Numbered from the stretch's first letter, positions 1 through 21,011 are shown. The stretch: 64,000 nt of DNA from Clostridia bacterium (GCA_017394805.1 JAFPXC010000011.1:20421-84420); one strand, 5' to 3'. A program made the numbers and translations. Notes: generated from the sequence alone by a model not told the origin.

Positions 1-423
1 CAGAGCGGCGAAACTGTTTAGGATATAAAACTCGATCAAATGATAAAATTGTATTTGCTCGAAGTTTCTTTAACAAAGCAACATCAAAACCTATACAAAC
101 CCCAAACCCGTTGTCACCATACATTCTCCACTGTGACAATGAATCCGAAACTTCAGAAAAACAACAAGCATAAGATAGCGTTTGTCCGATAGTAGGATTA
201 GTTAGTTCTTCAAGTCTAATATTTAGTTTTGATATATCCTCTTGGTTCAAACTACAACGCTGCGACAAATAATCTATTACCATCTGCCCATAATATCTCT
301 TTTCACTCCAATCATTTGTTTTATATAGATTAGATAAACGAATATTATGGTTGTTGATAATCGAAACAAAAGCATCCAAACTACAATAGTGGTATATAAT
401 AGACGGAGTTTGATGGCTACTCA
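1..423 (-). CDS. DUF2971-like protein, C-terminus cut by the window edge
   Basis: Not in the ORF track because it runs off the window. Manual translation from the ATG at 423-421 gives MSSHQTPSIIYHYCSLDAFVSIINNHNIRLSNLYKTNDWSE...SLSQWRMYGDNGFGVCIGF and stays open to position 1. The YHYxSLxAF...RxSxxxxxND and WxxYGD segments match my memory of DUF2971. The start abuts the methyltransferase stop at 424. Confidence 0.55.
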
Positions 424-2364
424 TTATAACACTCTCCTGTCGGTGTTGGGGCTGTAGGTCGCAAAGATTTGGTCGAAATTGGCAAGCACATCGTCGTGTC
501 CCATCGAACTGTCGCGGAAGACGGCATAGAGGGGGTGCATATCGGCGATAGCACGCACTACATCATCGGTGATGTTTGGCTCAAAGCAACACACCAAGTC
601 ATTGCCATCTACACAATAATAGGTAAACGTACGAGGTTGTGCATAGCCACCACCAGCATTATAGATTTTGCTATCATACACGGCGCGGTGTTGAATAGTA
701 CACTCCTTGCGCTCAATCTTGGCGGAGAGGGGTTTGCCGAGGGACAACATCACTTGGAACAACAAGTCCTCATCGGTGCGATCTTCCTTAATGTTGCTTT
801 CCAAGGAGTCCAGCAAAGATTGTTGCGTTTCCACAGGTTTATAATATACATCCTTCATATTGCTGCTATCCACACGCAACACACGGAATCCGATGTCAAG
901 ATTGGATGTAGTCAATGGAGAATCATCTACTATACGTTTACCTGCTCTCCGTATCCTTTCTTCACCTACATCACAAATAGTATGATAACCTACCTTATAT
1001 GCCTCACTTGATTCATCAAATTTTTCGGGAAGTTGAACCATAATAAACTTCCTTTTCCCTCCATCTTCTGCATTCAGTTGCATTACGGCGTGAGCAGTTG
1101 TTGCAGAGCCCGAAAAGAAGTCAAGTATTATATCATCCTGTTTGGTTCCTAAGATACAAAGCATTTTAAGTAACTTAACTGGCTTAGGCGTATCAAAAGG
1201 AGGTTGCTCCAACTCTTGAAAAATCCTGATAATGTCTTTTTTTGCCATATCAGTATGACCATAATCTTCAAAAAGTAGCAAACTTGAAGCTCGACGCCCT
1301 GTTACATCTGATAAAAACTGTTTCACTGCAGGGAAGGCATTACCATCTTTTCCAAAATATATCCTGTTTTCAGCAATTAACTGCTTCATTGTATCAGGCG
1401 CATATACCCAGTGTTTCCCTTTGGGAACATTAAAAACTTTACCTGTAATTGGACTTACAACATCATAATAACCATTTTTGCGCTCACCATTACCAACACA
1501 ATCTCCCGGTTTCCAATTACCTCGAGGATCATTGTCGGGATTCTTATATCTTGCGTTCATTTCAGGTGTACGAGGAAGCATTCCCAATGAGAATACATTT
1601 ATATTTTTGCAATAGCAGAGCACAAATTCATAATCGTTAGAGAAAAACCGAGCTTGATTCTTTGGCGAATAAACCTTTTGCCATCCAAGTTGTGAAATGA
1701 AATTAAACTCTCCAAATATTTCATTGCAAATTTTCTTCAAGTTTTCAATCTCATTTTCATCCATAGAGATAAATATTACCCCATCATCCGCTAACAAATC
1801 TTTGGCAATTCTCAAGCGCGGATAAAGCATGTTAAGCCAATCCGTATGAAAGCGACCATTAGACTCGGTGTTTAGTACCAAACGATTGCCCGCTTCATCA
1901 TATTGTCCACTACGCGAAATATATCCTGCCGTATCCTCTGCAAAGTCATCGGCATACACAAAGTCGTTGCCCGTGTTGTAGGGTGGATCGATGTATATCA
2001 TCTTGATTTTGCCGAGATAGGTTTCTTGTAAGAGTTTCAATACCTCAAGGTTGTCGCCTTCGATATAAAGATTCTCGGTAGTGTCAAAGTTGACGCTACG
2101 CTCCCGCACAGGGCGTAGAGTTGCCGTAGTGGGCGTATTGGCAAGTAGGATAGACTTGCGCTTGTCTGGCCAAGTGAATTGATACCGTTCCTCTTTGTCG
2201 TCTATGAGCATATCACTCATTTCTTGGCGAAGAACATCCCAATCCACCGCCAACACGGGCTTGCCATCACGCAATACCTCGGTCACGGCGTTGGGGAACA
2301 AAGCGCGTATCTTGGCGATATTCGCCTGCACATTATCCATCGAAATCATGTCAATTTTATCCAT
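424..2364 (-). CDS. Beta-class N6-adenine/N4-cytosine DNA methyltransferase (Type III Mod-like)
   Basis: 646 aa. Motif IV IYIDPPYNTG (about aa 124-133) precedes motif I DFFSGSATTAHAV (about aa 416-428), which is the beta-class order. ATG at 2364 with AGGAG upstream. Confidence 0.9.
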   Translation of the reverse strand: MDKIDMISMDNVQANIAKIRALFPNAVTEVLRDGKPVLAVDWDVLRQEMSDMLIDDKEERYQFTWPDKRKSILLANTPTTATLRPVRERSVNFDTTENLYIEGDNLEVLKLLQETYLGKIKMIYIDPPYNTGNDFVYADDFAEDTAGYISRSGQYDEAGNRLVLNTESNGRFHTDWLNMLYPRLRIAKDLLADDGVIFISMDENEIENLKKICNEIFGEFNFISQLGWQKVYSPKNQARFFSNDYEFVLCYCKNINVFSLGMLPRTPEMNARYKNPDNDPRGNWKPGDCVGNGERKNGYYDVVSPITGKVFNVPKGKHWVYAPDTMKQLIAENRIYFGKDGNAFPAVKQFLSDVTGRRASSLLLFEDYGHTDMAKKDIIRIFQELEQPPFDTPKPVKLLKMLCILGTKQDDIILDFFSGSATTAHAVMQLNAEDGGKRKFIMVQLPEKFDESSEAYKVGYHTICDVGEERIRRAGKRIVDDSPLTTSNLDIGFRVLRVDSSNMKDVYYKPVETQQSLLDSLESNIKEDRTDEDLLFQVMLSLGKPLSAKIERKECTIQHRAVYDSKIYNAGGGYAQPRTFTYYCVDGNDLVCCFEPNITDDVVRAIADMHPLYAVFRDSSMGHDDVLANFDQIFATYSPNTDRRVL

Positions 2365-2379
2365 AATAATCTCCTATGG

Positions 2380-3021
2380 TTAGTCGCTGGCATCTGCCAA
2401 AGCAACTTGAAGTTCTTTTAGTTTTGCGTTCAGTTCAAAACGCTTCTTAGCTTGTTTTTCTGCGTCAACAAGGGCTTGCATTTTGGCAATCTCCTTGTGT
2501 AAACGCAGTATAGATTCGTACCTATCGACGAAGTCCTTTGTCGGTTCACCCTCACGGGCGGTGATAGGAATCAACTCGTCAATGATAGCGGTATAAATAT
2601 CGTCAATAGACGCCACCCACGACGGGATAAACACCGATGGAGACTCCGTTTGCCATGAGGTACTATAATACTTGCTACATCTCACGCCCTTTTCAGTACG
2701 CTCTTTGTATGCGCCATAGAGCATAGATTGTCCGGCAATTTGCAACACAAAGACGGTATGCAAATTGATGGCTTTGTCCAATGCCGCTATGAAGGTAGCG
2801 GGGATAGTCTTATCGGCGAGGTCGAGAGCAAATACATAGATTTCTTTGACCTCGCCGACTGTGCGGAAGTTGAGCGTAGCAGGCGACAGTACATTGGTGA
2901 GTGTAACCGACAATACTTGCTTGCCATCGGCTCGCACGCTTTTGTCGGCGTCCATCACCTTATACAGTTCGCTTTGCTTGAACCGTCTATTCACTTCGGT
3001 TTTGCTACTAAACCCCAACAT
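2380..3021 (-). CDS. Hypothetical 213-aa protein between the helicase and the methylase (the position typical of DUF4391)
   Basis: Clean ATG ORF, 1 nt after the helicase stop and 15 nt before the MTase start. I can name no catalytic motif. The DUF4391 label comes from remembered gene context, not from a sequence match. Confidence 0.6.
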   Translation of the reverse strand: MLGFSSKTEVNRRFKQSELYKVMDADKSVRADGKQVLSVTLTNVLSPATLNFRTVGEVKEIYVFALDLADKTIPATFIAALDKAINLHTVFVLQIAGQSMLYGAYKERTEKGVRCSKYYSTSWQTESPSVFIPSWVASIDDIYTAIIDELIPITAREGEPTKDFVDRYESILRLHKEIAKMQALVDAEKQAKKRFELNAKLKELQVALADASD

Positions 3022-3022
3022 A

Positions 3023-6000
3023 CTACTTGATCACCACAAACGAAATCAACTCGAAGTCGTCTAATGCAAACATATTTTGCTGGAATAACACCTTGCTGCC
3101 AACCTTGAATAGCGACTGCAAATCGTTTTCCTCTTTCGCCGCAATGATGCTGGCAATGGCACCATCCAACAACTCGTTGTATTTCTCCATTCTTGCACCA
3201 TCTTTTGTCTCCCGATTGAATCGACGACACAAATCTGCAAGAGGCTCTGCATTGCCTTTGCAAGTAGCGCGTAGCACATCCAACACATACTTGACCTCAA
3301 GATGGTTATAAAGTATGGTGCCATCATCACGGATATACACCAGATAGAAGGGATGCAAGCGGTTTAGCTTGTTGATGTTGATACCATCATTGCGGTTGCA
3401 CAACACAAAAATGGTGCCCGGCTCAATGCCTTTGGACTCGTCGGCAGCGACTACTGCGTGTAGCCCTTTGGTGACACCTTTAGGATCACCAACCTCTTTG
3501 TGATATGCCACCAAGTCCATTACAAAGTCATTCAAACCCAAGTCCGTGATAGAGATATTGCCGTCAACGTCCTCGAGGTCTTGCAGGGTACCCTCTTGCA
3601 ACTTCTTAAGCTGCTCTTTGCGGTAATCCATTTCCTCCGCTTCTTCGGATATGATGTTGTCGTCGGCAGTAGCGGTAGCATTGACGATGGTCATACGAGC
3701 CGACACACGCTTGTTGAGGTTGATGTATTCGTCGAGCGTGATGTCCGGCCAGAAGTTGACCAACTGAATGCTCGTATTGACGCTTCCGATACGGTCAATA
3801 CGACCGAAACGTTGCACAATGCGCACGGGGTTCCAATGGATATCGTAGTTGATACAAATATCGCAGTCTTGCAGGTTTTGACCTTCGGAGATACAATCGG
3901 TACCTATGAGCACATCAATCTCATGTTTTTCGTCGGGATAGATGACCGCTTTTTGCTTGGATATTGGCGAGAAAAGCGTCAACAATCTATCCGTGTTTGG
4001 ACTACCGCCTATGTTGGTGCGGTTGTCGCCACCACCCGATACACGCGCCGTATATATGCCATACTTCGACAGCATATACTCGCTGATGTTTTGATAGAGA
4101 TAATCCGCAGTATCGGCGAAGGCAGAGAAAATCAACACTTTACGGTTGCCTTCATTGAACGGATGCGCCATCTTTTCTTCAATGAGTTGCTTCAATTCGC
4201 AGAGTTTATTATCATCTGCGGGCGTAACACGCAACATTTCGTGATATAGACGATATAGTATATCGGCGTCGTTTTGAATCTCACGGCGCCAAGTGGTAAC
4301 GTCAATGTCCGCCAACTTGATCTCGATAGTCTTGCCGGCAGCTATCTTCTCCAAAGAAAAGTCGTTGTCTTCGTCCGGATCAACGATGGCATATTCGGCA
4401 ACCTCTTTCTTGATGGATGCCGTTGTGTCGCCCGCCAAGAACCTATCAATGGTAGCCAACATCTCTTTATTGATGTCAAGCAATTTTTTGAGCGTGATGC
4501 GGAAGGCGTGAACACTGCTCTCCAAACGTTTCAAGAGCCCAATAGTCATCAACTTCTTCAATCCGCTTTCACGGTGCTTTTGACGCGTCAAGCCTTGTCC
4601 AAGAGCGTTGGCGTTGGGATTCTCTTTAGAAAGATCCACCTCGTACAACTCTTCGTACTCGTCTATACGCGAGGGGAACAGCATCGCCAACGGAGCATAA
4701 ACGCTCATGTTCATCTCCAGCAACAAGTCATAGATTTGTTTATAGGAGAGGATGGCTGGGTTATTCGTCAGCTTGGGGTACTTGGAAACGACAGGCAAAC
4801 GTGTGGGGAATTGCCCAATGTCGGCAGTGCTGTAATACTTCTGAATGTGTTTACGGCTACGTGCGATGGTTACGCTATCCAAGATGATTGAGAAGTCGAT
4901 GTCCAACTTATCAATAAGGTCTTTGGCATGGCGTTCCTCGATAGGCAACTTACTCCAAGCATTGAATACCTTTTGCGCTTGCTGGAAAACAACCTGCACG
5001 TCTTTGTCGGTACCAATCGTTTCGCTCATTTCTTCATAGTTGCCGCAGTATGCCAACAACAACTGATTCTTCAAATCGTTGTAACGGTTGTTGACAGGTG
5101 TGGCAGACAGCATCAAAACCTTTGTCTTAACGCCATCTTGCATGATGCGTTTCATCAAAAAGTCATAGCGCGTGTCCCTATCCTTGCGGGAGGCGTTATT
5201 GTTACGGAAATTGTGACTCTCGTCTATCACCACCAAGTCATAGTTGCCCCAGTTCACGGTAGCAAGGTCTATGCCGCCACTCTTGCCCGAAGTGCGTCCC
5301 AAATCAGTGTGGAATAGCACGTCAAAACGAATACGGTCTTTGTAGAAGATATTAACCTTGGTGTTGCCTTGATACTGCGTCCAGTTCTGCTCCAAGCGCT
5401 TAGGACAAAGCACCAAAATAGACTTGTTGCGCAAGGAATAGTATTGCATGACGGCAAGGGCGGTGAAGGTTTTGCCCAAGCCCACGCTGTCGGCAAGAAT
5501 GCAGCCGTTGTATTTCTCTAGCTTGTTGATGATGCCGACGGCACCATCCTTTTGGAAATTGTACAACTTGTTCCAAATAAGACTGTTCTTGAACCCCGTA
5601 GCCTCGTTGGGCATATAGTCGGAGTCGAGATCTTGCAAAAACTCACGGAAGATGTTGTACAGAATGATGTAGTAAATGAACTCCGGCGAGTTTTCTTTGT
5701 AGCAAGATGAAATGTAATCCACGATGGCAGCAGTGATGTCTTCCACATCATCGTCATTTTGCCAAAGTCGATCGAACTCCGTCAAAAAACTACGGCTATA
5801 ACTAGCGTCGTCGGTCTTAATGATTTGTACCAAGTGGCTACCGTTACTCTCATATCCCAACTCGGCGGTAGTAAAGCCTCCAATAGGCGTATATGTGGTG
5901 CTATGCTCGTGGTTGGTGATATTGACGGAGGTCTGCGTATAGCCCTCGCTCTTGATAGACTTGATTTGCACCTTGTTACGGATCCACTCGGCACATTCAC

Positions 6001-6325
6001 GCGCAATGGCTCTCTGCGTCATTTGGTTGCGCAACCGTATCTCGAAGTCCGTGCCACACAAGGAAGATTCGCTGAACTTAGGGATAAAGAATTCACGCTT
6101 TTCTTTTTTGATATTGTCGGTAATATGAGCATCTACGAAGGTCGGCGTAGTAAAAAGGAAACGCAATTCTTCAATGCCTTCCAACTCTTCACGCAAAGCC
6201 GCGTATGCGTATATGGAAAAACACGATGCCGCTATGCGTACCCTGTCTGCTCCCAGCAACTCCTTTTTGAGGTCGTCGCCCAACAATTTGCTCGTATTAT
6301 TGATGATATCAATCATTGCTTTCAT
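3023..6325 (-). CDS. SNF2-family (SF2) helicase-related protein, 1100 aa
   Basis: Motif I LADSVGLGKTFTALAV, motif II DLVVIDESHNFRN, motif III LMLSATPVNN, motifs V-VI LIGTDCISEGQNLQD...HWNPVRIVQRFGRIDRIGS. The N-terminal ~230 aa and C-terminal ~200 aa are unassigned. The start could be ATG 6325 or ATG 6316. Confidence 0.9.
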   Translation of the reverse strand: MKAMIDIINNTSKLLGDDLKKELLGADRVRIAASCFSIYAYAALREELEGIEELRFLFTTPTFVDAHITDNIKKEKREFFIPKFSESSLCGTDFEIRLRNQMTQRAIARECAEWIRNKVQIKSIKSEGYTQTSVNITNHEHSTTYTPIGGFTTAELGYESNGSHLVQIIKTDDASYSRSFLTEFDRLWQNDDDVEDITAAIVDYISSCYKENSPEFIYYIILYNIFREFLQDLDSDYMPNEATGFKNSLIWNKLYNFQKDGAVGIINKLEKYNGCILADSVGLGKTFTALAVMQYYSLRNKSILVLCPKRLEQNWTQYQGNTKVNIFYKDRIRFDVLFHTDLGRTSGKSGGIDLATVNWGNYDLVVIDESHNFRNNNASRKDRDTRYDFLMKRIMQDGVKTKVLMLSATPVNNRYNDLKNQLLLAYCGNYEEMSETIGTDKDVQVVFQQAQKVFNAWSKLPIEERHAKDLIDKLDIDFSIILDSVTIARSRKHIQKYYSTADIGQFPTRLPVVSKYPKLTNNPAILSYKQIYDLLLEMNMSVYAPLAMLFPSRIDEYEELYEVDLSKENPNANALGQGLTRQKHRESGLKKLMTIGLLKRLESSVHAFRITLKKLLDINKEMLATIDRFLAGDTTASIKKEVAEYAIVDPDEDNDFSLEKIAAGKTIEIKLADIDVTTWRREIQNDADILYRLYHEMLRVTPADDNKLCELKQLIEEKMAHPFNEGNRKVLIFSAFADTADYLYQNISEYMLSKYGIYTARVSGGGDNRTNIGGSPNTDRLLTLFSPISKQKAVIYPDEKHEIDVLIGTDCISEGQNLQDCDICINYDIHWNPVRIVQRFGRIDRIGSVNTSIQLVNFWPDITLDEYINLNKRVSARMTIVNATATADDNIISEEAEEMDYRKEQLKKLQEGTLQDLEDVDGNISITDLGLNDFVMDLVAYHKEVGDPKGVTKGLHAVVAADESKGIEPGTIFVLCNRNDGININKLNRLHPFYLVYIRDDGTILYNHLEVKYVLDVLRATCKGNAEPLADLCRRFNRETKDGARMEKYNELLDGAIASIIAAKEENDLQSLFKVGSKVLFQQNMFALDDFELISFVVIK

Positions 6326-6345
6326 CCTCGTGCGTATGTATTACG

Positions 6346-6374
6346 ATTATATCAAAAATCTTTGATATAGTCAA
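6346..6374 (-). promoter_or_regulatory. Sigma-70-type promoter of the helicase operon with an embedded palindrome
   Basis: The minus strand reads TTGACT (6374-6369), a 17-nt spacer, then TATAAT (6351-6346). The spacer and -10 contain ATATCAAA-N4-TTTGATAT (6349-6368), a perfect 8-bp dyad. Confidence 0.6.
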
Positions 6375-6439
6375 GAGCGCTTGGCAAGCATATATATCAC
6401 CATCAATATCAAAATGAGCGTAATCATAATGCTATCCTC

Positions 6440-6766
6440 TCAACATTGCACTGGCGGGAACATCGCAAAACTACGACCATCGGCAACATTCAACAGCGAC
6501 ACCCAACCTACCACGGGAGTTTGCTCACGCGTCTTGCCATTGATCAATATCGCATGGTTTTCTTCCGTGAAGTACACTGACACGTCTTCGAAGCATTGAC
6601 TCATAGCCAAAGCAAAAACTACCTTCATCTCCGTAAAAGGTTTATCGTCATACGGAGCCTCTGCGACTGTCGCGCACTGCAACCCTTTAGAAATCAAACG
6701 AATCTTTGCGGGCATTTTGTCATCGTCATACCATAAAATATCCATAATAACCTCCTCAATCATCAT
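6440..6766 (-). CDS. Hypothetical protein (108 aa)
   Basis: ORF only. It overlaps the upstream membrane ORF by 11 nt. No recognisable motif. Confidence 0.45.
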   Translation of the reverse strand: MMIEEVIMDILWYDDDKMPAKIRLISKGLQCATVAEAPYDDKPFTEMKVVFALAMSQCFEDVSVYFTEENHAILINGKTREQTPVVGWVSLLNVADGRSFAMFPPVQC

Positions 6767-7109
6767 CTATCATGTCCCAAAAGATAATTTCATCCATTGT
6801 AATTCCATCATCCTTTTGGCTTTGGTCATTAACTCTCTTTTTCTCTTCGGTTTTGCTGTTCTGCGAATGTTGAACTGCGAATGAAAGCATCCATATAAAT
6901 GCAAGGCAATGAGGAATGGCAACGAAGAGCACAGTCCAATGCTTTATAAAGAACATCGCGATCAAAGTTCCGAGCCACAAAACGCTACTAAAAAGCGTTA
7001 CAACAATTTCTGCGGGAGATGCTTTTTTCATTTCTTTGTCCTCCTTCACTATCATTTTAGCCAACACTGATAAGGAGGTCAATGTTGAGATGTCCCAAAA
7101 ATCGCCCAC
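6756..7109 (-). CDS. Hypothetical membrane protein (two hydrophobic helices)
   Basis: ORF with the hydrophobic segments IVVTLFSSVLWLGTLIAMFFI and VLFVAIPHCLAFIWMLSFAV. The start is uncertain because there are several in-frame Met codons. Confidence 0.45.
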   Translation of the reverse strand: MGDFWDISTLTSLSVLAKMIVKEDKEMKKASPAEIVVTLFSSVLWLGTLIAMFFIKHWTVLFVAIPHCLAFIWMLSFAVQHSQNSKTEEKKRVNDQSQKDDGITMDEIIFWDMIDDD

Positions 7110-7151
7110 CTTGCAAAGTTTTTCAAATCTTGTCTAACACTGTCTCACAGC

Positions 7152-7219
7152 GTTAGGCGTGCCTTGTCTTTGAAACAAGCACGCGCGCGACGCGCGCGTG
7201 AAGACAAGGCACGCCTAAC
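7152..7219. repeat. Nested perfect hairpin, candidate double-strand origin or recombination site
   Basis: The outer 19-bp stem is GTTAGGCGTGCCTTGTCTT (7152-7170) with AAGACAAGGCACGCCTAAC (7201-7219). The inner 10-bp GC stem is CACGCGCGCG (7180-7189) with CGCGCGCGTG (7191-7200). No T-run follows on either strand. It lies 140 nt from the Rep stop. Confidence 0.7.
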
Positions 7220-7360
7220 AACGAATCAACCAACGCCCAACCGAACCAATTACGCGCTTTCGACTGTCCGATGTGAGCGGCCGCAGGGGGCTCGCTAAAC
7301 CGCTACGCCACACCTGCTTGAACCGTCTCACACATTTCGGGCATTTCCCGAAAGGCGTCG

Positions 7361-8374
7361 TTAGTTGGATTTACGGAGTTGGGCGCGTGTTTCTTCGCTG
7401 TTTACGCCGACGTACACGCCTTCATCCCAACAGTCAAAATCCTCGAATAGTAGCAGTTTCTTGTCTTCCATTCCTGTCCGCATAATCACGTCTTTGTCCT
7501 CGATGTCGCTCATTACATACATGGGGAGTCCGCGACTGTACACAATCTTCTCTCCCGTCTTTTCGATGTACTTCAAGATATAGTCGATGGTTGAGCCCAG
7601 ATACATCGGGCCCTTCGTCGCCAACATATCAAACTCGTTGCGTCCGTACTTTTCATCGAAGAAGGTATTGTGGGTGTATTCCACCATGCGTCCACTCTTT
7701 TTGTTGTACTCCCGCGTGTCTTGTAGCATCCCTACCATTTGTCCTTCGGGCACATTCAATAGACAGTGAAAGTGCAGTCGTTCGGTCTCGCTTCCGCGTT
7801 CCCATACTCCCATATAAGTCCAGCCTCTCGCCGTATGGAAGTTTTGCAGCGTTCTCATAAGCCGCCACTTGAAAGTTACTTCATCCATCTTGGCGCTGTC
7901 GTATGTGAAGGTCGCAAAGTAATTGAAGTTGTTGAGGTGCGCCTTCCTCATAAACCGCTGTCGCTTGGCATTGAGCGCCTTGTTCTTTTCTTCCAACTTC
8001 TCCGACACATACTCCCACATCTTATTGTAGTGGGGAAACAGTTTCTTCATCTCGCTCAATATGTACTTGCGCCGGCGTTTCGGCGTCAAATCAAAACTCT
8101 CTCGATACAGCCTTTCAAACTCGGCTTTCTTCGTCGTATGGCGCTTGGTAGATTGAGATTCCGTAGAGGTTGTGTCCTCCACCGGCGTCTCCGTCTCGCA
8201 AGCATCGGTCGTTTCACTTTCAGCTTGCGTTGGTGCCGCCGTATGGTCGTCAACCTCTACTATCTCTTCTACCTCGGGGCGCCTATGCTTTGCGCTAGGG
8301 TTAGGTTCGTAAGGGATAGCGATATAATGGACGCCATCACAATACACCTTTGCATTGGGATACCATTTGCTCAT
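7361..8374 (-). CDS. Rolling-circle replication initiator (HUH endonuclease, two-tyrosine type)
   Basis: Motif 1 FATFTYD, motif 2 RLHFHCLLNV (HUH), motif 3 DYILKYIEK (YxxxY, as in phiX174-type Reps). I moved the start to ATG 8374, which has GGAGG 6 nt upstream. The 20 upstream codons in the track ORF have no RBS. Confidence 0.8.
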   Translation of the reverse strand: MSKWYPNAKVYCDGVHYIAIPYEPNPSAKHRRPEVEEIVEVDDHTAAPTQAESETTDACETETPVEDTTSTESQSTKRHTTKKAEFERLYRESFDLTPKRRRKYILSEMKKLFPHYNKMWEYVSEKLEEKNKALNAKRQRFMRKAHLNNFNYFATFTYDSAKMDEVTFKWRLMRTLQNFHTARGWTYMGVWERGSETERLHFHCLLNVPEGQMVGMLQDTREYNKKSGRMVEYTHNTFFDEKYGRNEFDMLATKGPMYLGSTIDYILKYIEKTGEKIVYSRGLPMYVMSDIEDKDVIMRTGMEDKKLLLFEDFDCWDEGVYVGVNSEETRAQLRKSN

Positions 8375-8420
8375 GTTCCACCTCCAAGATAGTTTATCCC
8401 GAGCGCGGATAGAGGCAGGG

Positions 8421-10547
8421 CTAGTCCTCGTCACTCGGATCGGAGTAAATGCCCTCTATGAAATAACTGTGTTGCTGATGCAACTCGTCAATGGTTGCCT
8501 TTGTCCCGGCGTATGACGGATAATCGTTCAATCCAACGTTTGTTTTCTTCGCCATTTCTGCAAAGAAGTCTCCAAATGCGTCGGTTGCAAAACGCTCTGC
8601 GTATATCTTTTGGTGCAACAAATAATACTTTTTTCTCTCGGGCTTGGAGTCCATTGTGCCGCGCTCTTTTTCGATGCTCAACGTGCTATACCCAAATCGG
8701 TTTTCTATGCGTTTTTTGTACTTGTACAGCCACGAAACGACGCTCTTCAAGAGGTAGACCAACAACGTGTTGTCGCCTCGTCTAAACCGCATTTTTTCGT
8801 ACAGTCGCCCGAAGCCGTTGTAAGACCAATCGCACAGCATATCTTCTAGCACGAAGAACGGTAGAGCCAACCCATTCGGGGATGTGTCCGTGATAGTGAT
8901 GACGTCGCAGAGGTCGCGTGCGTCGGCGCCCCAAGAGGCTGCGCGTTGCTCGTCGGCAAATACTTTGATGAAGGGGTAATTGTCTACGGTGGCACTATGG
9001 CGGCACATTTTCAACCAAAGGTTGAAGTCGTCGTTTTTCTGATTCGCCTTGTCGTCACCTTTCTTGATTTCTTTGAGTTCCAACATATTTCCGCGCTCCT
9101 TGCCAACTTCGCTGATCACGACGGTGCCAAACTCAAATGAACCAATATTCGGGTTGTCCTCTATCATCTTTTTCCCCAGGCGCAAGGTATCGAAATCGAG
9201 TATGTGAGCATACCGCGATTTGCGTAACCGACGCTTGGGGAAGAAGTTGTTGTACCACAACGGGAAGTTTCCCCCGTCTTGCAAAACAGAGTCCTCTCGT
9301 ATGGCGTAGTTGGATACAAGCAAAGAGGACTGTACCACATAGATGAAATACAGTTGTGCGTAGATCTCCAGCGCGTCGAATAAGGACAGCGTTTTGAGGT
9401 TGTTGTCGTAGCTCATGCCGTATCGCGCCGTGTCGTACCCATACAGTTGCTCAACGTTGTCTTGTCGCCTTCGGTATCGCTGCTCTTTCTTTCGCACCCA
9501 CTCCCTCGCCGTAGCCAAGTTGTAGACTGTATGGTACTCCATACACCGGCGCAACGCCATCTCAAAAGATATCCACGGGAAGAAGGGGAACATCATATCT
9601 ATCGCCACCAACCTTTGGTACGCTTCTTGCCGAAACATAACCGCTTGCGATAACGCCATGTCGGTGATCGCCGTTGTTTTGCGTTTTCCCATACTACCGC
9701 AGGTGAGCGTCACGATAGGCAATTCCTTGATAAAACCGCAATTCTTGGCTTCCATGTGTCGCAAACGTGCATCGGCGATACGCTCTCTCCAACGACAAAA
9801 CACCTTCCAGATATAAGGCAAAAAAAGGTACCATGGGAACCGTAGGAACAGCACTTGCAAGTCCATGATCAATTTGACCGCCTGCATATACAAGCCGCCC
9901 AACTGATACGAGGACGCGAAGTAGAAGTAGTACCCCAAAGCAGATAGCAATATCGCACCGAAGTTGAGGTTGAACGCCCAAATGATGATGTACAAATATA
10001 CCAGATTGGGGTGGTACGTTAGGTACTCTTTGTAGCCGATGGCAAACTGTTTGAACGGCTGATATACCGTGTTAGATAGTTTCTTGAACCGTTTGAGCGG
10101 GCGCGTGTCCTTGTTGTGCTTGGTGTTCGGCTTGCGGTACAGCATTATGATTGCCATTATGACGCCGGCGATAAGCGGGAAGCACATTATCAAGATTTTG
10201 GACGCTCTCTCCATCTTGGAGAGTTCGGCGAGTAGCCAACCCGTTGCATTCGTTTCATCTACCAAAAGCGTGCCGTACTGTTCGGTCTTCGTCTTGAATA
10301 GCGCCCAAGTTTCGGGCCAATTTATTAGCCATTCCATCACTTGGGACTTGTTACCGATGGTGACGTCTAAGTCTATAGGGCGGTGTAGAACGAAATATAG
10401 GTAGTGCTTCAAGCAACTCCAAAAGTCCACGGCAGATTCGGCGAGGCGCAGATAGGATTTGTAATAGACGCTTGCACCCAGCATGATCGCCACAGCAAAG
10501 AAGATAAAGGTTACTGCAATGTTCAATCGTCGCTGTCTTTTATCCAT
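8421..10547 (-). CDS. Membrane-anchored P-loop NTPase (708 aa)
   Basis: The N-terminal ~270 aa have four to five hydrophobic helices. Walker A is CGSMGKRKTT (aa 283-292) and a Walker B-like segment is TVVISEVGKE. I cannot assign a family by eye; Zot/pI-like or FtsK/TcpA-like are both possible. Confidence 0.75.
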   Translation of the reverse strand: MDKRQRRLNIAVTFIFFAVAIMLGASVYYKSYLRLAESAVDFWSCLKHYLYFVLHRPIDLDVTIGNKSQVMEWLINWPETWALFKTKTEQYGTLLVDETNATGWLLAELSKMERASKILIMCFPLIAGVIMAIIMLYRKPNTKHNKDTRPLKRFKKLSNTVYQPFKQFAIGYKEYLTYHPNLVYLYIIIWAFNLNFGAILLSALGYYFYFASSYQLGGLYMQAVKLIMDLQVLFLRFPWYLFLPYIWKVFCRWRERIADARLRHMEAKNCGFIKELPIVTLTCGSMGKRKTTAITDMALSQAVMFRQEAYQRLVAIDMMFPFFPWISFEMALRRCMEYHTVYNLATAREWVRKKEQRYRRRQDNVEQLYGYDTARYGMSYDNNLKTLSLFDALEIYAQLYFIYVVQSSLLVSNYAIREDSVLQDGGNFPLWYNNFFPKRRLRKSRYAHILDFDTLRLGKKMIEDNPNIGSFEFGTVVISEVGKERGNMLELKEIKKGDDKANQKNDDFNLWLKMCRHSATVDNYPFIKVFADEQRAASWGADARDLCDVITITDTSPNGLALPFFVLEDMLCDWSYNGFGRLYEKMRFRRGDNTLLVYLLKSVVSWLYKYKKRIENRFGYSTLSIEKERGTMDSKPERKKYYLLHQKIYAERFATDAFGDFFAEMAKKTNVGLNDYPSYAGTKATIDELHQQHSYFIEGIYSDPSDED

Positions 10548-10689
10548 AATACCCTCCCATAATTGCTCTTGCTATTTCGGTGGTATCGGTAATGGATGCT
10601 GCCTTCTTACCCGTATAAATGAGATAAGAAAGCAGTAGAGCCATTATCAATACGCCCAAAACAGCCAATGCTCGTTTCAGGCTTTTCAT
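10540..10689 (-). CDS. Small membrane protein (49 aa), absent from the ORF track
   Basis: Manual translation: MKSLKRALAVLGVLIMALLLSYLIYTGKKAASITDTTEIARAIMGGYYG. GGAGG lies 7 nt upstream of ATG 10689. Its end overlaps the NTPase ATG, which suggests translational coupling. Confidence 0.5.
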   Translation of the reverse strand: MKSLKRALAVLGVLIMALLLSYLIYTGKKAASITDTTEIARAIMGGYYG

Positions 10690-10700
10690 CGTGCTACCTC

Positions 10701-12392
10701 CTACAAGTCGCTGTCTCCGTCATCGAAGTAGCCCATTGCCGCCCAAGCGTCTGCCTCGGCTTGTTTCCATTCGGGATCGTGATTAAGGGCATATTCCTCG
10801 GCTTTCGTCAAGCGCACCGATTCTCGTTTGCCAGACCAAATGTCATTCTTCAGCTTCTCGACGTTGACACGCTTTGCTTGCCGTTCTATGCGCCGTCGCT
10901 CTCTTGCTTGCTGCCGCTCGATTTTTGCCAAACCTTTCTCGTTTGGACTTTTCGGCTCTCGCTTTTTGCAAGCTTTCACCGCGCCGCCCACAGCCTTGAA
11001 CGGCAAACTAACAAGCCACAAAACGAACTTGGCAATATAGGGTACAGCCGGCCACAGCACTATGAGCAATACCACCAAAAGCAAGATGGCAATGAGTGCC
11101 TTCCACCAACCACTCTCGGTGTTAATCTCGATGTCGAAGGTCGTCTCCGTAACAGGTTTATCCGAGCCCGTCTGCATATTATCGACGACGCCAAGATTGT
11201 ACACCGTACCGTTATGCCTAAACATAAGCCGCAAAATCGTGACGTTGCAAATGTTAGTACGCTCATAACTGACGGTAGTAGAGCCAACCATACTTGCGTT
11301 TTGGTACGGCGTCTCCACGAATTGCAAAACCCATTGTTTATCGGCTATGGCATTACGCCCTTCATCCGTTAGGCGTGTTTCCGTCGATACAGACCAAAAC
11401 CCTGCTTCATAGATGGATGATTGCTCGATGTTTGCCAAGAAGTCCGCCGTTGACGTGATTCGTTTCCACTCATAGTGTTGGCGCCCCGTGAACATACCTT
11501 TGGCATCGAAGGTACCATACTGGTCGTCGGTAAGCGTAACCACCGTAGGTGGTTGAGATTCGGGATCCGTCGGACGATACACGGTAGTGTACCCACCCAA
11601 GATGTAGTCAAAGAACCAATGCTCTTTTTCAAGCGTTACCTTTTGGGTAAAGTACTCAACGTCCGCTTCCAGCAAGTCGTCGATTTCGTGGTCGCAGGAA
11701 AACGCGACAAAGTGACTATCGCAGGCTGTCCCTATCATAAAGAACGGATCGTCTATGTACCGCACGAATCCTACAAACTTTTCGGTGATAAGCACTGTTT
11801 CGATGTCAATACAAGATACCGTATTGACGCCGTTCTCGGTACTAAACCGATACTGTTTGCTCACGCCGAAAGGTACTGCGTTGATTGTGTTGTCGTAGTC
11901 GGCTTGGGTGTCAACCTCCGACATAAACGGTCGCAAGAGTTGAATCACGGCATAGTAGCGCACCGGCTCTTTGGTTATGGTATAATCCTCGACCTTGTAC
12001 TTGTAGAAAACGCTCGAATGATTGATATACGTCAGGCGATAGTCTCTCGGCGCTATATCTTTGTCAATGGTTTCGGACAGCCGAATGTAATTCGCATAAT
12101 ACGTGCGTGCATATCCATAGGGTTGGTAAACATAAACAAACAGTTCGTCGTTTTTGCCTTCCGCTATGGTAATGAGTTGTAGCGAATAATCATTCTCGCG
12201 CTTCTCCCATTGGCTGATATTGAATGAGGCGTCAGTCTTGAGGTCGGTGAGCACATCGCTGTACTTGGTATCGGCTTTTGCCGTTGTGATGGGTACCAGA
12301 GTACCGAATGCTATGGCGCAAATGATAACCAAAACGGCTATAATTGCAACAAGTCGTTGGTACTGATACCCGATTGCAATATACTTTTTCAT
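10701..12392 (-). CDS. Secreted, C-terminally membrane-anchored protein (563 aa)
   Basis: An N-terminal hydrophobic segment is followed by AKA. Two C-terminal hydrophobic helices (WWKALIAILLLVVLLIVLW and IAKFVLWLVSLPF) are followed by a Lys/Arg/Glu-rich tail. AGGAGG RBS. Confidence 0.7.
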   Translation of the reverse strand: MKKYIAIGYQYQRLVAIIAVLVIICAIAFGTLVPITTAKADTKYSDVLTDLKTDASFNISQWEKRENDYSLQLITIAEGKNDELFVYVYQPYGYARTYYANYIRLSETIDKDIAPRDYRLTYINHSSVFYKYKVEDYTITKEPVRYYAVIQLLRPFMSEVDTQADYDNTINAVPFGVSKQYRFSTENGVNTVSCIDIETVLITEKFVGFVRYIDDPFFMIGTACDSHFVAFSCDHEIDDLLEADVEYFTQKVTLEKEHWFFDYILGGYTTVYRPTDPESQPPTVVTLTDDQYGTFDAKGMFTGRQHYEWKRITSTADFLANIEQSSIYEAGFWSVSTETRLTDEGRNAIADKQWVLQFVETPYQNASMVGSTTVSYERTNICNVTILRLMFRHNGTVYNLGVVDNMQTGSDKPVTETTFDIEINTESGWWKALIAILLLVVLLIVLWPAVPYIAKFVLWLVSLPFKAVGGAVKACKKREPKSPNEKGLAKIERQQARERRRIERQAKRVNVEKLKNDIWSGKRESVRLTKAEEYALNHDPEWKQAEADAWAAMGYFDDGDSDL

Positions 12393-15429: not shown

Positions 15430-15750
15430 TTATTTGTTGTCGGCATTCTTGCCTTTACCCTTGACGGGTTTGCCGGCGGCTTCGGCAGCTGCGGCTGCTT
15501 TCTCGGCTTGGGCGGCAGCCTCTTGTGCTTCCTGCTCGCGCTTTTGCTTCAGCCATTGGAAAAAGTGGTACATGCCCACGTGATCGTGATTGGCCTCGAG
15601 ATAACCGGCGCGAACGCCTTTTTCGTACTCGGTGAGGTCTTGACCTGCCTTGTCGCCTTCGAGATGCTTGCCTTTCTTCTTCTCGGCGTACATCTGTTCC
15701 CCAGCCTTGTGGGGATTCTTCCAACGGTTCCTGTAATTGTATCTACCCAT
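15430..15750 (-). CDS. Basic, Ala/Lys-tailed 106-aa protein
   Basis: I moved the start to ATG 15750 (MGRYNYRNRW...), which has AAGGAG 8 nt upstream. The track ORF extends 87 codons further across repeat c1 (see findings). Confidence 0.6.
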   Translation of the reverse strand: MGRYNYRNRWKNPHKAGEQMYAEKKKGKHLEGDKAGQDLTEYEKGVRAGYLEANHDHVGMYHFFQWLKQKREQEAQEAAAQAEKAAAAAEAAGKPVKGKGKNADNK

Positions 15751-15929
15751 AGTAGTCTCCTTTGCCCGTAACCAGATAGCACAGTGATTTGAGTTGATGC
15801 CCGTAAGTGCCGTTAGCAAAGCGTGATGGTATGATATTAAGTTGTAGAGTTGTGCCGTCTGAAACTGATACGACGTTCCGTCATGGGCGATTGGGGAGTG
15901 GCCACTCTTACCTTGCAAGCCGCAATCGA

Positions 15930-16080
15930 GAAAGGGGCGTTTCGTCAAGCACATCTTCAGTTTAGACCTTGGAAGTGTAAAAACGCCATAGACTGAATGG
16001 GTGGGAATCATACCCGATTAACACAGTTTTTGAATGGCGAAAAACCAAATTGAACGTAGTGGAATGCACTAGCACTTCAC
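15930..16080 (-). repeat. Repeat copy c1 (the family is c1, c2, c3)
   Basis: It shares an 18-mer TGTAAAAACGCCATAGAC (15976-15993) and a 12-mer AATCATACCCGA (16006-16017) with c2. It shares a 20-mer GCCATAGACTGAATGGGTGG (15985-16004) with the reverse complement of c3. The distal box CACTAGCACTTCA (16067-16079) matches c2 at 18662-18674. Confidence 0.8.
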
Positions 16081-16250: not shown

Positions 16251-16355
16251 AAGGAAATGATGCACTTCCTTCCTCGATAGAGGAGAACCGCCCACTGCGG
16301 GGCTGATGGCGTCTACACGATTGGCGATTGCCAAAAGTGTTGGCGTCGTTTTTTT
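16251..16355 (+). promoter_or_regulatory. 5' leader with alternative pairings and an intrinsic terminator (attenuator or candidate riboswitch)
   Basis: Hairpins AAGGAA/TTCCTT (16251-16271) and CCTC-GATA-GAGG (16272-16283). GCCAA (16330-16334) can pair either with the upstream TTGGC (16321-16325) or with the downstream TTGGC (16340-16344). The downstream pairing extends to about 9 bp and is followed by TTTTTTT (16349-16355). Confidence 0.5.
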
Positions 16356-16368
16356 ATGGAGGTGTGTT

Positions 16369-18521: not shown

Positions 18522-18675
18522 CGCGTTCACCTCCTTTGCCTTTGATACTTCCATTGTAGAACTTGGGACTGTAAAAACGCCATAGACGGAATGCACGCAA
18601 ATCATACCCGACTGTACTACTTTCGGACGGCACTGTCACTTGACTTGAATTGACTAGTAAACACTAGCACATCAA
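18522..18675 (-). repeat. Repeat copy c2
   Basis: Core at 18563-18611. It is direct with c1 and inverted relative to c3: TTGGGACTGTA at 18563-18573 matches TACAGTCCCAA at 19004-19014, and GCCATAGAC at 18579-18587 matches GTCTATGGC at 18990-18998. Confidence 0.8.
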
Positions 18676-19059: not shown

Positions 19060-19464
19060 ATGAAAAAAGCCGTCATTTATGCAAGGTATCGTGGAGATGC
19101 CAGCATACCCGCACAACCGTATATCGAGGAACAAATTGAAAAGTGCATGTGCTATGCGCAAGAACACGATATACAAGTCAAAAGAGTCTATACCGAGATA
19201 GAAGTATGGGGAGTACCCGCACAACCGAGAGTAATCCGCGAACAAATGATATTGGACAGCGCAAGTCACGAATGGGATACCGTACTCGTTACCGATATGG
19301 ACAAGCTCGCAAGAAAACGCACTGACGCTTGGGAGTGCAAACACCGTTTAGAAAAGAACGGAGTCACCATCGAGCCCATCACTCAAAAGAACATTGCCGA
19401 GGAAATCATCATCGAACAAATCTTGATTGGCATGGAAAAGTATGAAGCAAGGAGGAAGAAATAA
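19060..19464 (+). CDS. Resolvase-domain-only serine-recombinase paralog lacking the canonical nucleophile context
   Basis: 134 aa. AVIYARYRGDAS stands where the neighbouring recombinase has AVIYARYSSESQ. DMDKLARK stands where the neighbour has KLDRFSRN. The stop overlaps the next ATG (TAATG). Confidence 0.7.
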   Translation: MKKAVIYARYRGDASIPAQPYIEEQIEKCMCYAQEHDIQVKRVYTEIEVWGVPAQPRVIREQMILDSASHEWDTVLVTDMDKLARKRTDAWECKHRLEKNGVTIEPITQKNIAEEIIIEQILIGMEKYEARRKK

Positions 19465-21011
19465 TGCAAACAGCGGTAATCTATGCTCGCTACAGCAGCG
19501 AATCGCAAAACGAACAGTCCATAGAAGGACAGTTGCGCGTGTGTAACGCGTACGCGGAGGCGCATCATCTATTGGTTCTCAATCAATATATCGACCGCGC
19601 TATGACAGGCAGAAATGACGCCAGACCGGAATTCCAAAAGATGCTCGCGGACAGCAAAGACCACAAATTCGAGGTGGTGCTGGTCTACAAGTTGGATAGG
19701 TTCTCCCGTAACAAATACGAATCGGTCATGCACAAGAAAACGTTGAAAGACAACGGAGTGATCGTCGTATCGGCGACAGAGAACATACCCGACACACCCG
19801 AGGGCGTTATCTTGGAATCGCTTTTGGAAGGCATGAACCAATACTACTCGATGGAGTTGTCCCAAAAAGTACACCGTGGCTTGACCGAGAGTTATCTCAA
19901 AGGCAACTTTACCGGCGGGCGCATTCGCTACGGCTATAGAGTCGAAGGCAAAAAGGTGTACATCGTCGAAGAAGAGGCAGCCATTATCCGTGAGGTGTAT
20001 TTCAAATACGCACAGGGATATACCGTGCCCGACATTCTTCTTTCCCTCAATAATCGCAACCTACGAAACCGAGAGGGCAACTCCTTCCACGTGAAATACC
20101 TATACGATATGCTTCACTATCCCAAATATCGGGGGTTGGTAGAACACGATGGGGTTGTCTACGACAACATATTCCCGCGTATCATAAGCGACGAGATATG
20201 GGAAAAAGTCTCACAACGACACCAAGAAGACGCGTTGGGCGTCGGCGTCAAAACAAGCAGCAACTATCTATTGTCCGGCAAGATGTACTGCGCTCATTGC
20301 TTTCATCCGCTAATCGGCATCTCTGCGCATGGTCGGCACTGCAAATACTACTATTATGCCTGTAATCGGGGCCGTCGCGTACCGAATGACTGCGAAGCGA
20401 GACCGCTCGACAGAGATACGATACACGACATAGTATTCAACACGACCTGCGCTCTCGTTGCCGACAATAATATGATCGCCGAGCTTGCTCATCTCATTAT
20501 GCAAGAGCACAACCGAGCCGTGAAAGACGACTACACGTTGCAATCGCTGGAGAGCAGGTTGCAAACAGTAAAGCGTGCGATGGAGAATTTGTTGCGTGCC
20601 ATTGAGTCGGGCATCATCACCGAGCAAACGAAAGCGCGTATGGAAGAACTGCAAGAACAAGCACAACGCTTGCAGCTGGAAATCAACGTGGAGAAGATAC
20701 GGGTACGCCCCGACCTCGAAACCATTGATGTCGTGGACTTCCTGCGATCGCAATTCTTTGGCGAAACGCAAGACGACGAGATACGAAAAGCGTTGCTGAA
20801 AACTTTTATCTACACGATAATACGCGATGACAACAAGATAACGATAGTGTACAACTTCCGCAATGATTACAACCCGACGAAAATCAAGCGAGAGGAATTG
20901 GAAACGCTACTACATATAGCAGAACAAAAAGGGGTGGTCTTCAAAAAGGCCACCTACTTTTTTACTCCAGACCGCTTCGGAGTACAAATATCCTACAATC
21001 CGTCGGCGTAA
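19464..21011 (+). CDS. Large serine recombinase (515 aa)
   Basis: N-terminal resolvase domain with YARYSSESQ and VYKLDRFSRN. It also has a recombinase domain, a Cys-rich zinc-ribbon region (CAHC...C...C) and a C-terminal coiled coil. Confidence 0.9.
   Translation: MQTAVIYARYSSESQNEQSIEGQLRVCNAYAEAHHLLVLNQYIDRAMTGRNDARPEFQKMLADSKDHKFEVVLVYKLDRFSRNKYESVMHKKTLKDNGVIVVSATENIPDTPEGVILESLLEGMNQYYSMELSQKVHRGLTESYLKGNFTGGRIRYGYRVEGKKVYIVEEEAAIIREVYFKYAQGYTVPDILLSLNNRNLRNREGNSFHVKYLYDMLHYPKYRGLVEHDGVVYDNIFPRIISDEIWEKVSQRHQEDALGVGVKTSSNYLLSGKMYCAHCFHPLIGISAHGRHCKYYYYACNRGRRVPNDCEARPLDRDTIHDIVFNTTCALVADNNMIAELAHLIMQEHNRAVKDDYTLQSLESRLQTVKRAMENLLRAIESGIITEQTKARMEELQEQAQRLQLEINVEKIRVRPDLETIDVVDFLRSQFFGETQDDEIRKALLKTFIYTIIRDDNKITIVYNFRNDYNPTKIKREELETLLHIAEQKGVVFKKATYFFTPDRFGVQISYNPSA

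Follow-up and report, generated by a model that had tools for sequence, protein, structure and literature searches.

A predicted Type III restriction-modification operon of a Clostridia bacterium with a Snf2-type ATPase and a DUF4391 protein encoded upstream of mod and res

INTRODUCTION

Type III restriction-modification (R-M) enzymes provide the textbook example of one-dimensional diffusion on DNA that is triggered by ATP. In the prototypes EcoP1I and EcoP15I, Mod2 methylates one strand of the short asymmetric site that it recognizes. The Mod2Res complex uses ATP at unmethylated sites to start sliding along the DNA, and cleavage takes place when enzymes coming from two inversely oriented sites meet. 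To our knowledge, a second motor has no known role in the classical Type III enzymes. Here, we describe an operon at the beginning of a 64,000-nucleotide stretch of DNA from a Clostridia bacterium (GCA_017394805.1, JAFPXC010000011.1:20421-84420; the whole stretch is referred to as the window). The window very probably contains four genes, the last one truncated, from the beginning of an operon of six genes for a Type III R-M system, in which the genes of a Snf2-type ATPase and of a DUF4391 protein are located in front of mod.

With EcoP1I and EcoP15I (structure 4ZCF), the system shares a homologous Mod, a homologous Res, and the position of mod upstream of res in one operon. It differs from them in two respects: a Snf2 ATPase with an apparently inactive phospholipase D (PLD) domain and the DUF4391 protein precede mod, and a cargo gene encoding a DUF2971 protein splits mod from res. 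A PLD-fold domain located N-terminally to a Snf2 motor is also found in the Type-2 BREX-related (BR) systems, which are composed of a DUF499 ATPase, an N6-methyltransferase, an HKD-Swi2/Snf2 helicase, and a standalone DUF3780 protein (Rakesh & Krishnan, 2026; PMC12839542).

RESULTS

Gene arrangement of the operon and its continuation beyond the window

Four co-directional genes are located on the minus strand at the beginning of the window. The first gene of the operon (3023..6325) encodes a helicase of 1100 amino acids (aa), in which the Pfam domains SNF2-rel_dom, ResIII, and Helicase_C were detected. It is followed by the DUF4391 gene (2380..3021, 213 aa), the mod gene (424..2364, 646 aa; N6_N4_Mtase, 1.1e-35), and the 5' part of an open reading frame (ORF) encoding a DUF2971 protein (1..424; DUF2971, 6.6e-07). 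The latter starts with an ATG at position 424 and is cut by the window edge at position 1, leaving 141 codons visible. The genes are separated by 1 nt and 15 nt and, in the case of the last junction, overlap by 1 nt, the ATG of the DUF2971 gene overlapping the stop codon of mod (TAATG). A sigma-70-like promoter matching the consensus (TTGACT-17 nt-TATAAT with an extended -10 TG) is predicted on the minus strand at 6346..6374, directly upstream of the helicase ATG. With a match of 11 out of 12 positions, it is the top-scoring site in 1..7400, although the total number of promoter-like sites in this region (18) is not above the shuffle expectation (14.3 ± 4.4). The packing of four co-directional genes with gaps of 0-15 nt behind one consensus promoter, which had been described in an initial annotation of the window, is in accordance with these junctions and this site. 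At the DNA level, the sole match to window positions 1-6400 was a segment of 300 bp with 75% identity in two E. coli genomes, and the search of plasmid DNA with the same region gave no match.

Scans of the operon proteins with Pfam, PADLOC, and NCBIfam did not detect any nuclease domain within the window. According to the initial annotation, the operon is a candidate for an R-M-like system lacking a recognizable nuclease, in which the 213-aa protein, the DUF2971 protein, or an unassigned helicase domain could be the effector. Besides the negative scans, the conserved but unassigned C-terminal 240 aa of the helicase and a weak match of DUF2971 to the PADLOC single-gene candidate PDC-S31 are consistent with such a system. 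The sequence downstream of the window edge, however, contains the nuclease. An exact look-up of the Mod protein among public assemblies retrieved a metagenome scaffold from ENA (L002), to which window 1..12364 is 100% identical across 12,364 bases without gaps. On L002, the operon has the order helicase, DUF4391, Mod, DUF2971, a 1027-aa protein with ResIII and RE_endonuc domains, and a Zn-ribbon protein; the junctions are −1 nt for Mod/DUF2971 and 3 nt for DUF2971/Res. The remainder of the DUF2971 gene extends up to L002 position 12879 and completes a protein of 312 aa (PF11185). The res gene (L002 12883-15966) starts 519 nt past window position 1. A Zn_ribbon_Top1 protein of 150 aa is encoded 5 nt behind res (L002 15972-16424), possibly by the sixth gene of the operon. 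Behind it, an ORF of 168 aa (L002 16573-17079) shows a weak YpsA/SLOG match (1.4e-04).

Judged by its sequence, the protein of 1027 aa represents a canonical Res of the Type III systems, in which an SF2 ATPase is combined with a PD-(D/E)xK endonuclease at the C-terminus. The Pfam families ResIII (1.3e-15) and RE_endonuc (PF19778, 3.6e-30) were both detected, the PADLOC model REase_III PDLC03647 was matched over the full length (residues 1-1025, 6e-281), and the sole sequence match in the PDB was the Res subunit of EcoP15I (4zcf_C, 4.5e-68). The motifs GTGKT (residue 113), DEPQ (residue 242), and a C-terminal PDW..(x18)..ETK (residue 959) are present here as well as in 30 out of 30 relatives. 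Because a canonical Res is encoded so close to the edge, the operon can be assigned to the Type III R-M systems with a conventional PD-(D/E)xK effector, and since Res is the nuclease, this role falls neither to the 213-aa protein nor to DUF2971 or the helicase. The "missing nuclease" is an artifact of the window edge. A nuclease-less system is also disfavored by DUF2971 accounting for just three of 32 inserted genes and being absent from most relatives, by the structure search with the 213-aa model, in which Foldseek gave no nuclease-like fold match, and by the lack of a conserved acidic-x-Lys motif in the helicase C-terminus. Taken together with the intact PD..ETK motif of Res, these results make a nuclease-less R-M-like system very unlikely.

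The Mod subunit

The 646-aa protein is a homolog of beta-class N6-adenine-type DNA methyltransferases and, according to its profile matches and motif order, the Mod subunit of a Type III system. It matched PF01555 and, over the full length, the PADLOC model MTase_III PDLC03634 (7.7e-224); its homologs in the PDB are a Type III Mod (6k0w, 3.4e-81) and the Mod subunit of EcoP15I (4zcf_A, 1e-66). The DPPY motif at residue 126 precedes DFFSGSA at residue 418, which corresponds to the beta-class order. This order had been recognized in the initial annotation, whereas the second motif, given there as FxGxG, is strictly FxGxA. The same form was found in 23 out of 31 relatives and is, therefore, the norm of the family. 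With the exception of two short arrays near 7131-7198, simple-sequence repeats were not detected in 1..7400, and the absence of repeats from mod means that there is no sign of phase variation.

The operon thus combines a beta-class PF01555 Mod, a Res with SF2 and PD-(D/E)xK domains, and a co-oriented gene arrangement with mod first, as is characteristic of Type III systems. The previous assignment to R-M-type defense operons is borne out by the two subunits. The statement that the cluster matches neither Type III R-M nor DISARM holds for DISARM (see below), but not for Type III R-M, because the locus encodes both Mod and Res.

Conservation of the four-gene core

One genome per GTDB species was scanned with a DUF4391 alignment, which resulted in 42 loci. 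These originate from Clostridia, Bacilli, Syntrophomonadaceae, and Prevotella, from Parasutterella and Corallococcus-labelled metagenome-assembled genomes (MAGs), and from Treponema, Sphaerochaetaceae, and a Methanomethylovorans MAG. Six-frame ORFs were scored by phmmer against the proteins of the window and of L002 and against their counterparts in E. coli H6. A DUF4391 match was obtained in 41 loci spanning Bacillota, Bacteroidota, Pseudomonadota, Spirochaetota, and an archaeon. Among these, the helicase is located upstream of DUF4391 in 33 of the 34 assessable loci, and Type III Mod and Type III Res were found downstream of DUF4391 wherever this could be assessed (30/30 and 23/23 loci, respectively). 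The gene order helicase, DUF4391, Mod, Res on one strand was observed in all assessed loci, and the more divergent DUF4391 representatives (L047, L048, L050) show the same order. Start and stop codons often overlap between the core genes; in the compact loci (L029, L037, L038, L042, L044), the junctions are about −4, −1, and +12 to +16 nt. A chromosomal island of E. coli H6 (RefSeq) encodes a helicase-related protein, DUF4391, an OLD-like nuclease, DUF2130, a methyltransferase, and a Type III endonuclease. The closest relatives of the system described here are found in Clostridia MAGs. Co-occurrence outside this genome, which the initial annotation had considered for its four gene families, applies to the helicase, DUF4391, and Mod; DUF2971 is missing from most relatives.

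In 24 complete loci, the pairwise identities of the core proteins co-vary, with a Spearman rho of 0.89 for helicase-DUF4391 and 0.82 each for helicase-Res and DUF4391-Res. For pairs including Mod, rho is about 0.7; this lower value might be caused by an exchange of target-recognition domains, if such exchange occurs. The invariable order and the co-divergence indicate that the genes are inherited together as a unit and are not chance neighbors. We conclude that the locus is a member of a widespread four-gene Type III subtype, in which a Snf2 ATPase and a DUF4391 protein are encoded before mod-res.

Alternatively, the helicase and DUF4391 might form an independent two-gene module for defense or maintenance, which travels beside Type III R-M without working together with Mod-Res. 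Such a module would fit the variable cargo tolerated between DUF4391 and Mod, including the two genes inserted between DUF4391 and the methyltransferase in E. coli H6, as well as a locus (L046) in which a DUF4391-ASCH gene is followed by a weak TIR-like gene instead of mod before the contig ends. It would also fit the appearance of the helicase family beside type III CRISPR-cas cassettes in the list of Shah et al. (2018; PMC6546367). An independent module does not account, however, for the presence of Mod and Res downstream in every assessable locus across phyla and in an archaeon, for the start/stop overlap at the DUF4391/Mod junction of the compact forms, or for the co-divergence of both proteins with Res. 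In addition, the disappearance of the PLD catalytic residues throughout the family (see below) is explained most easily if another nuclease, namely Res, does the cutting. An independent module is thus considered unlikely, and the assignment of the pair to the four-gene Type III subtype is retained.

In one of the divergent loci, a metagenome contig (L047, 6979-10923), DUF4391-Mod-Res is followed by a co-directional 359-aa gene and by genes encoding an HSP70+TPR protein (801 aa) and a UvrD-like helicase. The gene upstream of DUF4391 is cut by the contig end and was not assigned. This locus may be a larger defense superoperon.

The Snf2 helicase and its PLD-fold domain

The helicase consists of three parts, all encoded on the minus strand: a catalytically degenerate PLD-fold N-terminal domain predicted by structure modeling (about aa 1-210, nt 5696-6325), the Snf2 motor (about aa 250-860, nt 3746-5578), and a conserved C-terminal region to which no fold was assigned (aa 861-1100, nt 3026-3745). 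The helicase motifs I, II, III, and VI (GLGKT at residue 282, DESH at 368, SATP at 407, and QRFGRIDRIG at 838) are intact in this protein and in 33 out of 33 relatives; judged by these motifs, the protein is ATPase-competent. The earlier recognition of SNF2/SF2 motifs in the 1100-aa protein was therefore correct. Sequence matches in the PDB were restricted to Snf2-family remodelers and RapA, and the protein is a Snf2-family ATPase rather than a standard Type III Res. The best profile was PADLOC PDLC01075, 'C3a139 HKD+Snf2' (2.7e-114), which aligned at residues 4-1099 with profile positions 1-947 of 948. The name 'C3a139' stems from the list of genes neighboring type III CRISPR-cas cassettes (Shah et al., 2018; PMC6546367). 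PADLOC models exist for Mod, Res, and the helicase, the last only as a CRISPR-neighbor family; neither PADLOC nor NCBIfam contains a model for the DUF4391 protein.

The N-terminal part of the helicase (aa 1-245) was modeled with AlphaFold2. The model had a mean pLDDT of 72.5; its core strands and helices reached 80-93, and an insert at 64-96 is disordered. In Foldseek, this domain was most similar to the PLD nuclease domains of SauUSI (E 1.5e-06) and of R.NgoAVII (1.6e-05); lower-ranking matches were phosphatidylserine synthase, Zucchini, PLD3, and TDP1. Among 32 distinct members of the family, no histidine position is invariant within aa 1-250. The motif HxK(x)4D is absent from the N-terminus of this helicase and occurs at no conserved position in 33 relatives; where the HKD motif would be expected, this helicase has TQTSVNI, close relatives have TQSMIN, and distant ones have MGGFLN. 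Pfam searches with the N-terminal 245 aa and the C-terminal 236 aa yielded nothing usable at E ≤ 10, and PLDc was not among the hits. The fold match and the absence of a conserved histidine suggest that the N-domain is a catalytically dead PLD fold, which may serve in dimerization or DNA contact. Residues 860-1100 are conserved as well (40% of the positions at a level of at least 90%), and neither an acidic-x-Lys nor a PD-(D/E)xK motif is conserved in this region of the family alignment. For BR helicases, an inactive REase fold has been reported. The initial annotation was right in stating that neither nuclease signature is present in the helicase.

The C-lobe of the helicase is matched by the PADLOC models DrmD, HmaA, BrxHII, and PLD_Helicase (1e-24 to 1e-33; the HmaA match, 5.7e-26, is partial), and the NCBIfam family phospholipD_antiphage gave a match of 6.8e-38. 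These similarities could point to a DISARM-like or BREX-related system (Hma/BR, MANTIS), in which the Snf2 helicase would be the primary effector and Mod the self-marker. The combination of an HKD-Snf2 helicase with DUF3780, sometimes fused to ASCH as is DUF4391, in the Type-2 BR systems (PMC12839542) would be in line with this idea. The matches cover mainly the Snf2 motor, however, and remain far under the family cut-offs (149 vs. 610 bits and 131 vs. 1100 bits); the former value belongs to DrmD (NF038317), the best NCBIfam match of the helicase, which is confined to the C-lobe. Moreover, the PLD domain has no catalytic histidine, and the methyltransferase belongs to the Type III Mods, not to the PglX/BrxX or DUF1156-type enzymes. 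Genes for DrmA and DrmB (DUF1998) were found neither on L002 nor in the window flank, PglZ is not among the genes of the L002 locus, and a DUF499/BrxC-like AAA+ ATPase was detected neither among the called genes of L002 nor in the 41 loci as represented in the four-gene tally. Because their defining parts are absent, MANTIS/Gao_RL, Hma, BR systems, and DISARM were rejected as the identity of the system, and a role of the helicase as primary effector with Mod as the self-marker appears extremely improbable.

Partial similarities to these systems nevertheless exist. As in the Type-2 BR systems, a PLD fold is located N-terminally to a Snf2 motor, an adenine methyltransferase is linked, and there is a small standalone alpha+beta partner, which is occasionally fused to ASCH. 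In contrast to them, the locus described here has no DUF499 ATPase, its PLD catalytic residues appear to be lost, the methyltransferase is a Type III Mod, the nuclease is supplied by a separate Res, and no match to DUF3780 was obtained. SauUSI (7CLG) resembles the helicase in the order of PLD domain, SF2 motor, and C-terminal domain. In SauUSI and the R.NgoAVII/CglI family, however, the PLD domains are active and are themselves the nuclease, whereas the protein described here lacks a conserved histidine, possesses a Snf2-type motor, and is embedded in a Type III operon. In DISARM class 1, too, an adenine methyltransferase is encoded in the same locus as a Snf2 helicase and a PLD-fold element. 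There, the PLD element is the separate protein DrmC, while here it is fused and apparently inactive, and a Type III Res is present.

The DUF4391 protein

The 213-aa protein was assigned to PF14335 (DUF4391; 8.7e-27) with 95 bits, the gathering cut-off being 29.9. The DUF4391 profile detected 1248 clusters at 50% identity among 1.84 billion cluster representatives (E ≤ 1e-3). In the AlphaFold2 model (pLDDT 90.4, pTM 0.82), an alpha/beta domain with a multi-stranded sheet is followed by two long C-terminal helices. Foldseek searches with this model gave no significant match in the PDB and BFVD (best E 0.024 and 0.066, respectively; TM below 0.3), and the sequence search of the PDB gave coiled-coil noise only. 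Neither DUF3780 nor any other Pfam family besides DUF4391 was listed in the scan of the protein at E ≤ 10. The mentions of DUF4391 that a literature search returned are not functional, one of them being apparently a typographical error for DUF7941, and the literature search did not return a functional description of the helicase/DUF4391 pair or of the four-gene variant.

Deviating forms of DUF4391 were observed in single loci. In L046 (3868-5010), DUF4391 is fused to an ASCH (PUA-like) domain (P0271); the gene directly follows that of a 1082-aa Snf2 helicase, and a weak TIR-like ORF is located next to it, followed by the contig end. ASCH domains have been described as binding modified bases (PMC12839542). 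In L045 (1940-4327), a truncated PglZ is fused to DUF4391 in a protein of 795 aa (P0327), which is encoded directly upstream of Type III Mod and Res; a helicase is missing in this locus. P0327 is probably the result of a deletion joining a neighboring BREX locus to this system and was rejected as a link to BREX or a Rosetta-stone fusion. P0361 was also rejected as a Rosetta-stone fusion; it appears to be a deletion derivative of the helicase joined to DUF4391.

DUF2971 and other cargo genes

In many of the loci, extra co-directional genes separate Mod from DUF4391 or from Res. In a scan of 32 inserted ORFs, DUF2971 was found three times and nucleoside deoxyribosyltransferase-like proteins twice; the other inserted genes encode RhuM, an OLD-family ATPase-TOPRIM, Abi_C, KilA-N, Fic, and HicB-like antitoxin proteins, among others. 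As DUF2971 is just one of many variable inserts, it is regarded as cargo. It is an interchangeable passenger between mod and res and not a part of the core, but it may have a defense role of its own. Insertions of genes such as prrC or rloC between the hsd genes occur in Type I R-M operons. The arrangement described here is similar in that defense- or toxin-type cargo is located between conserved R-M genes, the host operon being of Type III.

Mobile-element context

The operon lies in a mobile element. A Rep_ORF2/G2P-like gene (7361..8434, minus strand) is located upstream of the operon along with unassigned genes, a large serine recombinase with Resolvase, Recombinase, and Zn_ribbon_recom domains is encoded at 19464..21011 on the plus strand, and PcfJ- and PcfK-like genes were found beyond Res on L002. 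The location next to a mobile-element module, as given in the initial annotation, was confirmed by these genes. The serine recombinase probably represents the integrase at one end of the element in which the R-M operon resides; a group of housekeeping genes (SHMT, PolA, IF-2, DnaG) starts around 25 kb.

Several further features were noticed in this region. A G+C-rich hairpin (CACGCGCGCGTCGCGCGCGTG) within 7131-7219 is framed by a perfect inverted repeat of 19 nt (7152-7170 and 7201-7219) and sits between small ORFs on the minus strand (6440-7109) and the Rep_ORF2/G2P-like gene. The hairpin might serve as a terminator or as an origin from which the mobile element is replicated or transferred. 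A direct repeat of 60 nt with 82% identity (15958-16017 and 18552-18611) brackets a Na+/H+ exchanger gene on the plus strand (16306-17568) and may be an insertion remnant or an attachment-site-like repeat. Just past the recombinase, a bacterial serpin (PF00079, 2.4e-41) is encoded at 23739-25043 on the plus strand. Finally, a 23-nt motif comprising a ribosome-binding site and ATG (coding strand AGGAGATTATTATGGATAAAA) is present at the starts of four minus-strand genes (2355-2377, 6736-6758, 10538-10560, and 15741-15763), with copies that are 74-100% identical.

DISCUSSION

Restriction by the system would follow the established Type III scheme, with hemimethylation by Mod2, sliding of Mod2Res, and collision-triggered cleavage. 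For the accessory pair, the following scenario is put forward with low confidence. The helicase may descend from the HKD-Snf2 effector helicases known from the Type-2 BREX-related systems and the 'phospholipase-D anti-phage' family, and its nuclease would have become redundant and been lost once the protein was coupled to Res. Helicase and DUF4391 might then act as a second dsDNA motor and an adaptor, which assist, license, or regulate Mod-Res. Clearing of roadblocks, reading of the modification state, and delivery of Res are conceivable roles of the pair. A more far-reaching proposal, which we advance only tentatively and regard as rather doubtful, is that a distinct Type III class with two motors exists, of which the Snf2 ATPase with the dead PLD domain and DUF4391 would be obligatory subunits or regulators. 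If this were true, the way in which Mod-Res finds, licenses, or cleaves foreign DNA would be altered by a translocating Snf2 motor together with DUF4391, which would serve as an adaptor or as a reader of modification. For example, the requirement for two inverted sites might be relaxed, or methylation might be gated as by the ATPases in MANTIS and BREX. The four-gene unit would then be a mechanistically new R-M subclass and not a Type III system with passengers.

Several points weigh against the interpretation of the operon as a four-gene Type III unit. The res gene is located outside the window, and its presence in the genome relies on the identical 12.4-kb overlap with a metagenome scaffold. 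Enzymatic activity, methylation specificity, and the role of the helicase and DUF4391 were addressed solely from sequence and predicted structure. One Prevotella locus (L023) comprises DUF4391-Mod-Res without a detectable helicase. The loci were gathered with DUF4391 as bait, so that DUF4391 implies Type III R-M, whereas the share of Type III systems possessing the pair is not given by this approach. Inserts between DUF4391 and Mod reach 4.4 kb (L033); the two halves are, therefore, not tightly coupled in translation in every locus. As a separate observation on the Prevotella locus, an ORF of 281 aa overlaps the DUF4391 start in place of the helicase (L023 9159-10645).

Type III R-M itself is well known, and the four-gene variant has been annotated piecemeal in the databases (as 'helicase-related protein', 'DUF4391 domain-containing protein', methyltransferase, and Type III endonuclease). 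Its Snf2/DUF4391 pair is clearly selected. The claim of an operon without a nuclease dissolves with the sequence beyond the edge, which calls for caution when operons are read at the ends of a window. The conserved second motor of the Snf2 type with its decayed nuclease domain suggests an unstudied layer of control or mechanism in these enzymes, and the architecture ties Type III R-M evolutionarily to the HKD-Snf2 effectors of the BREX-related systems.

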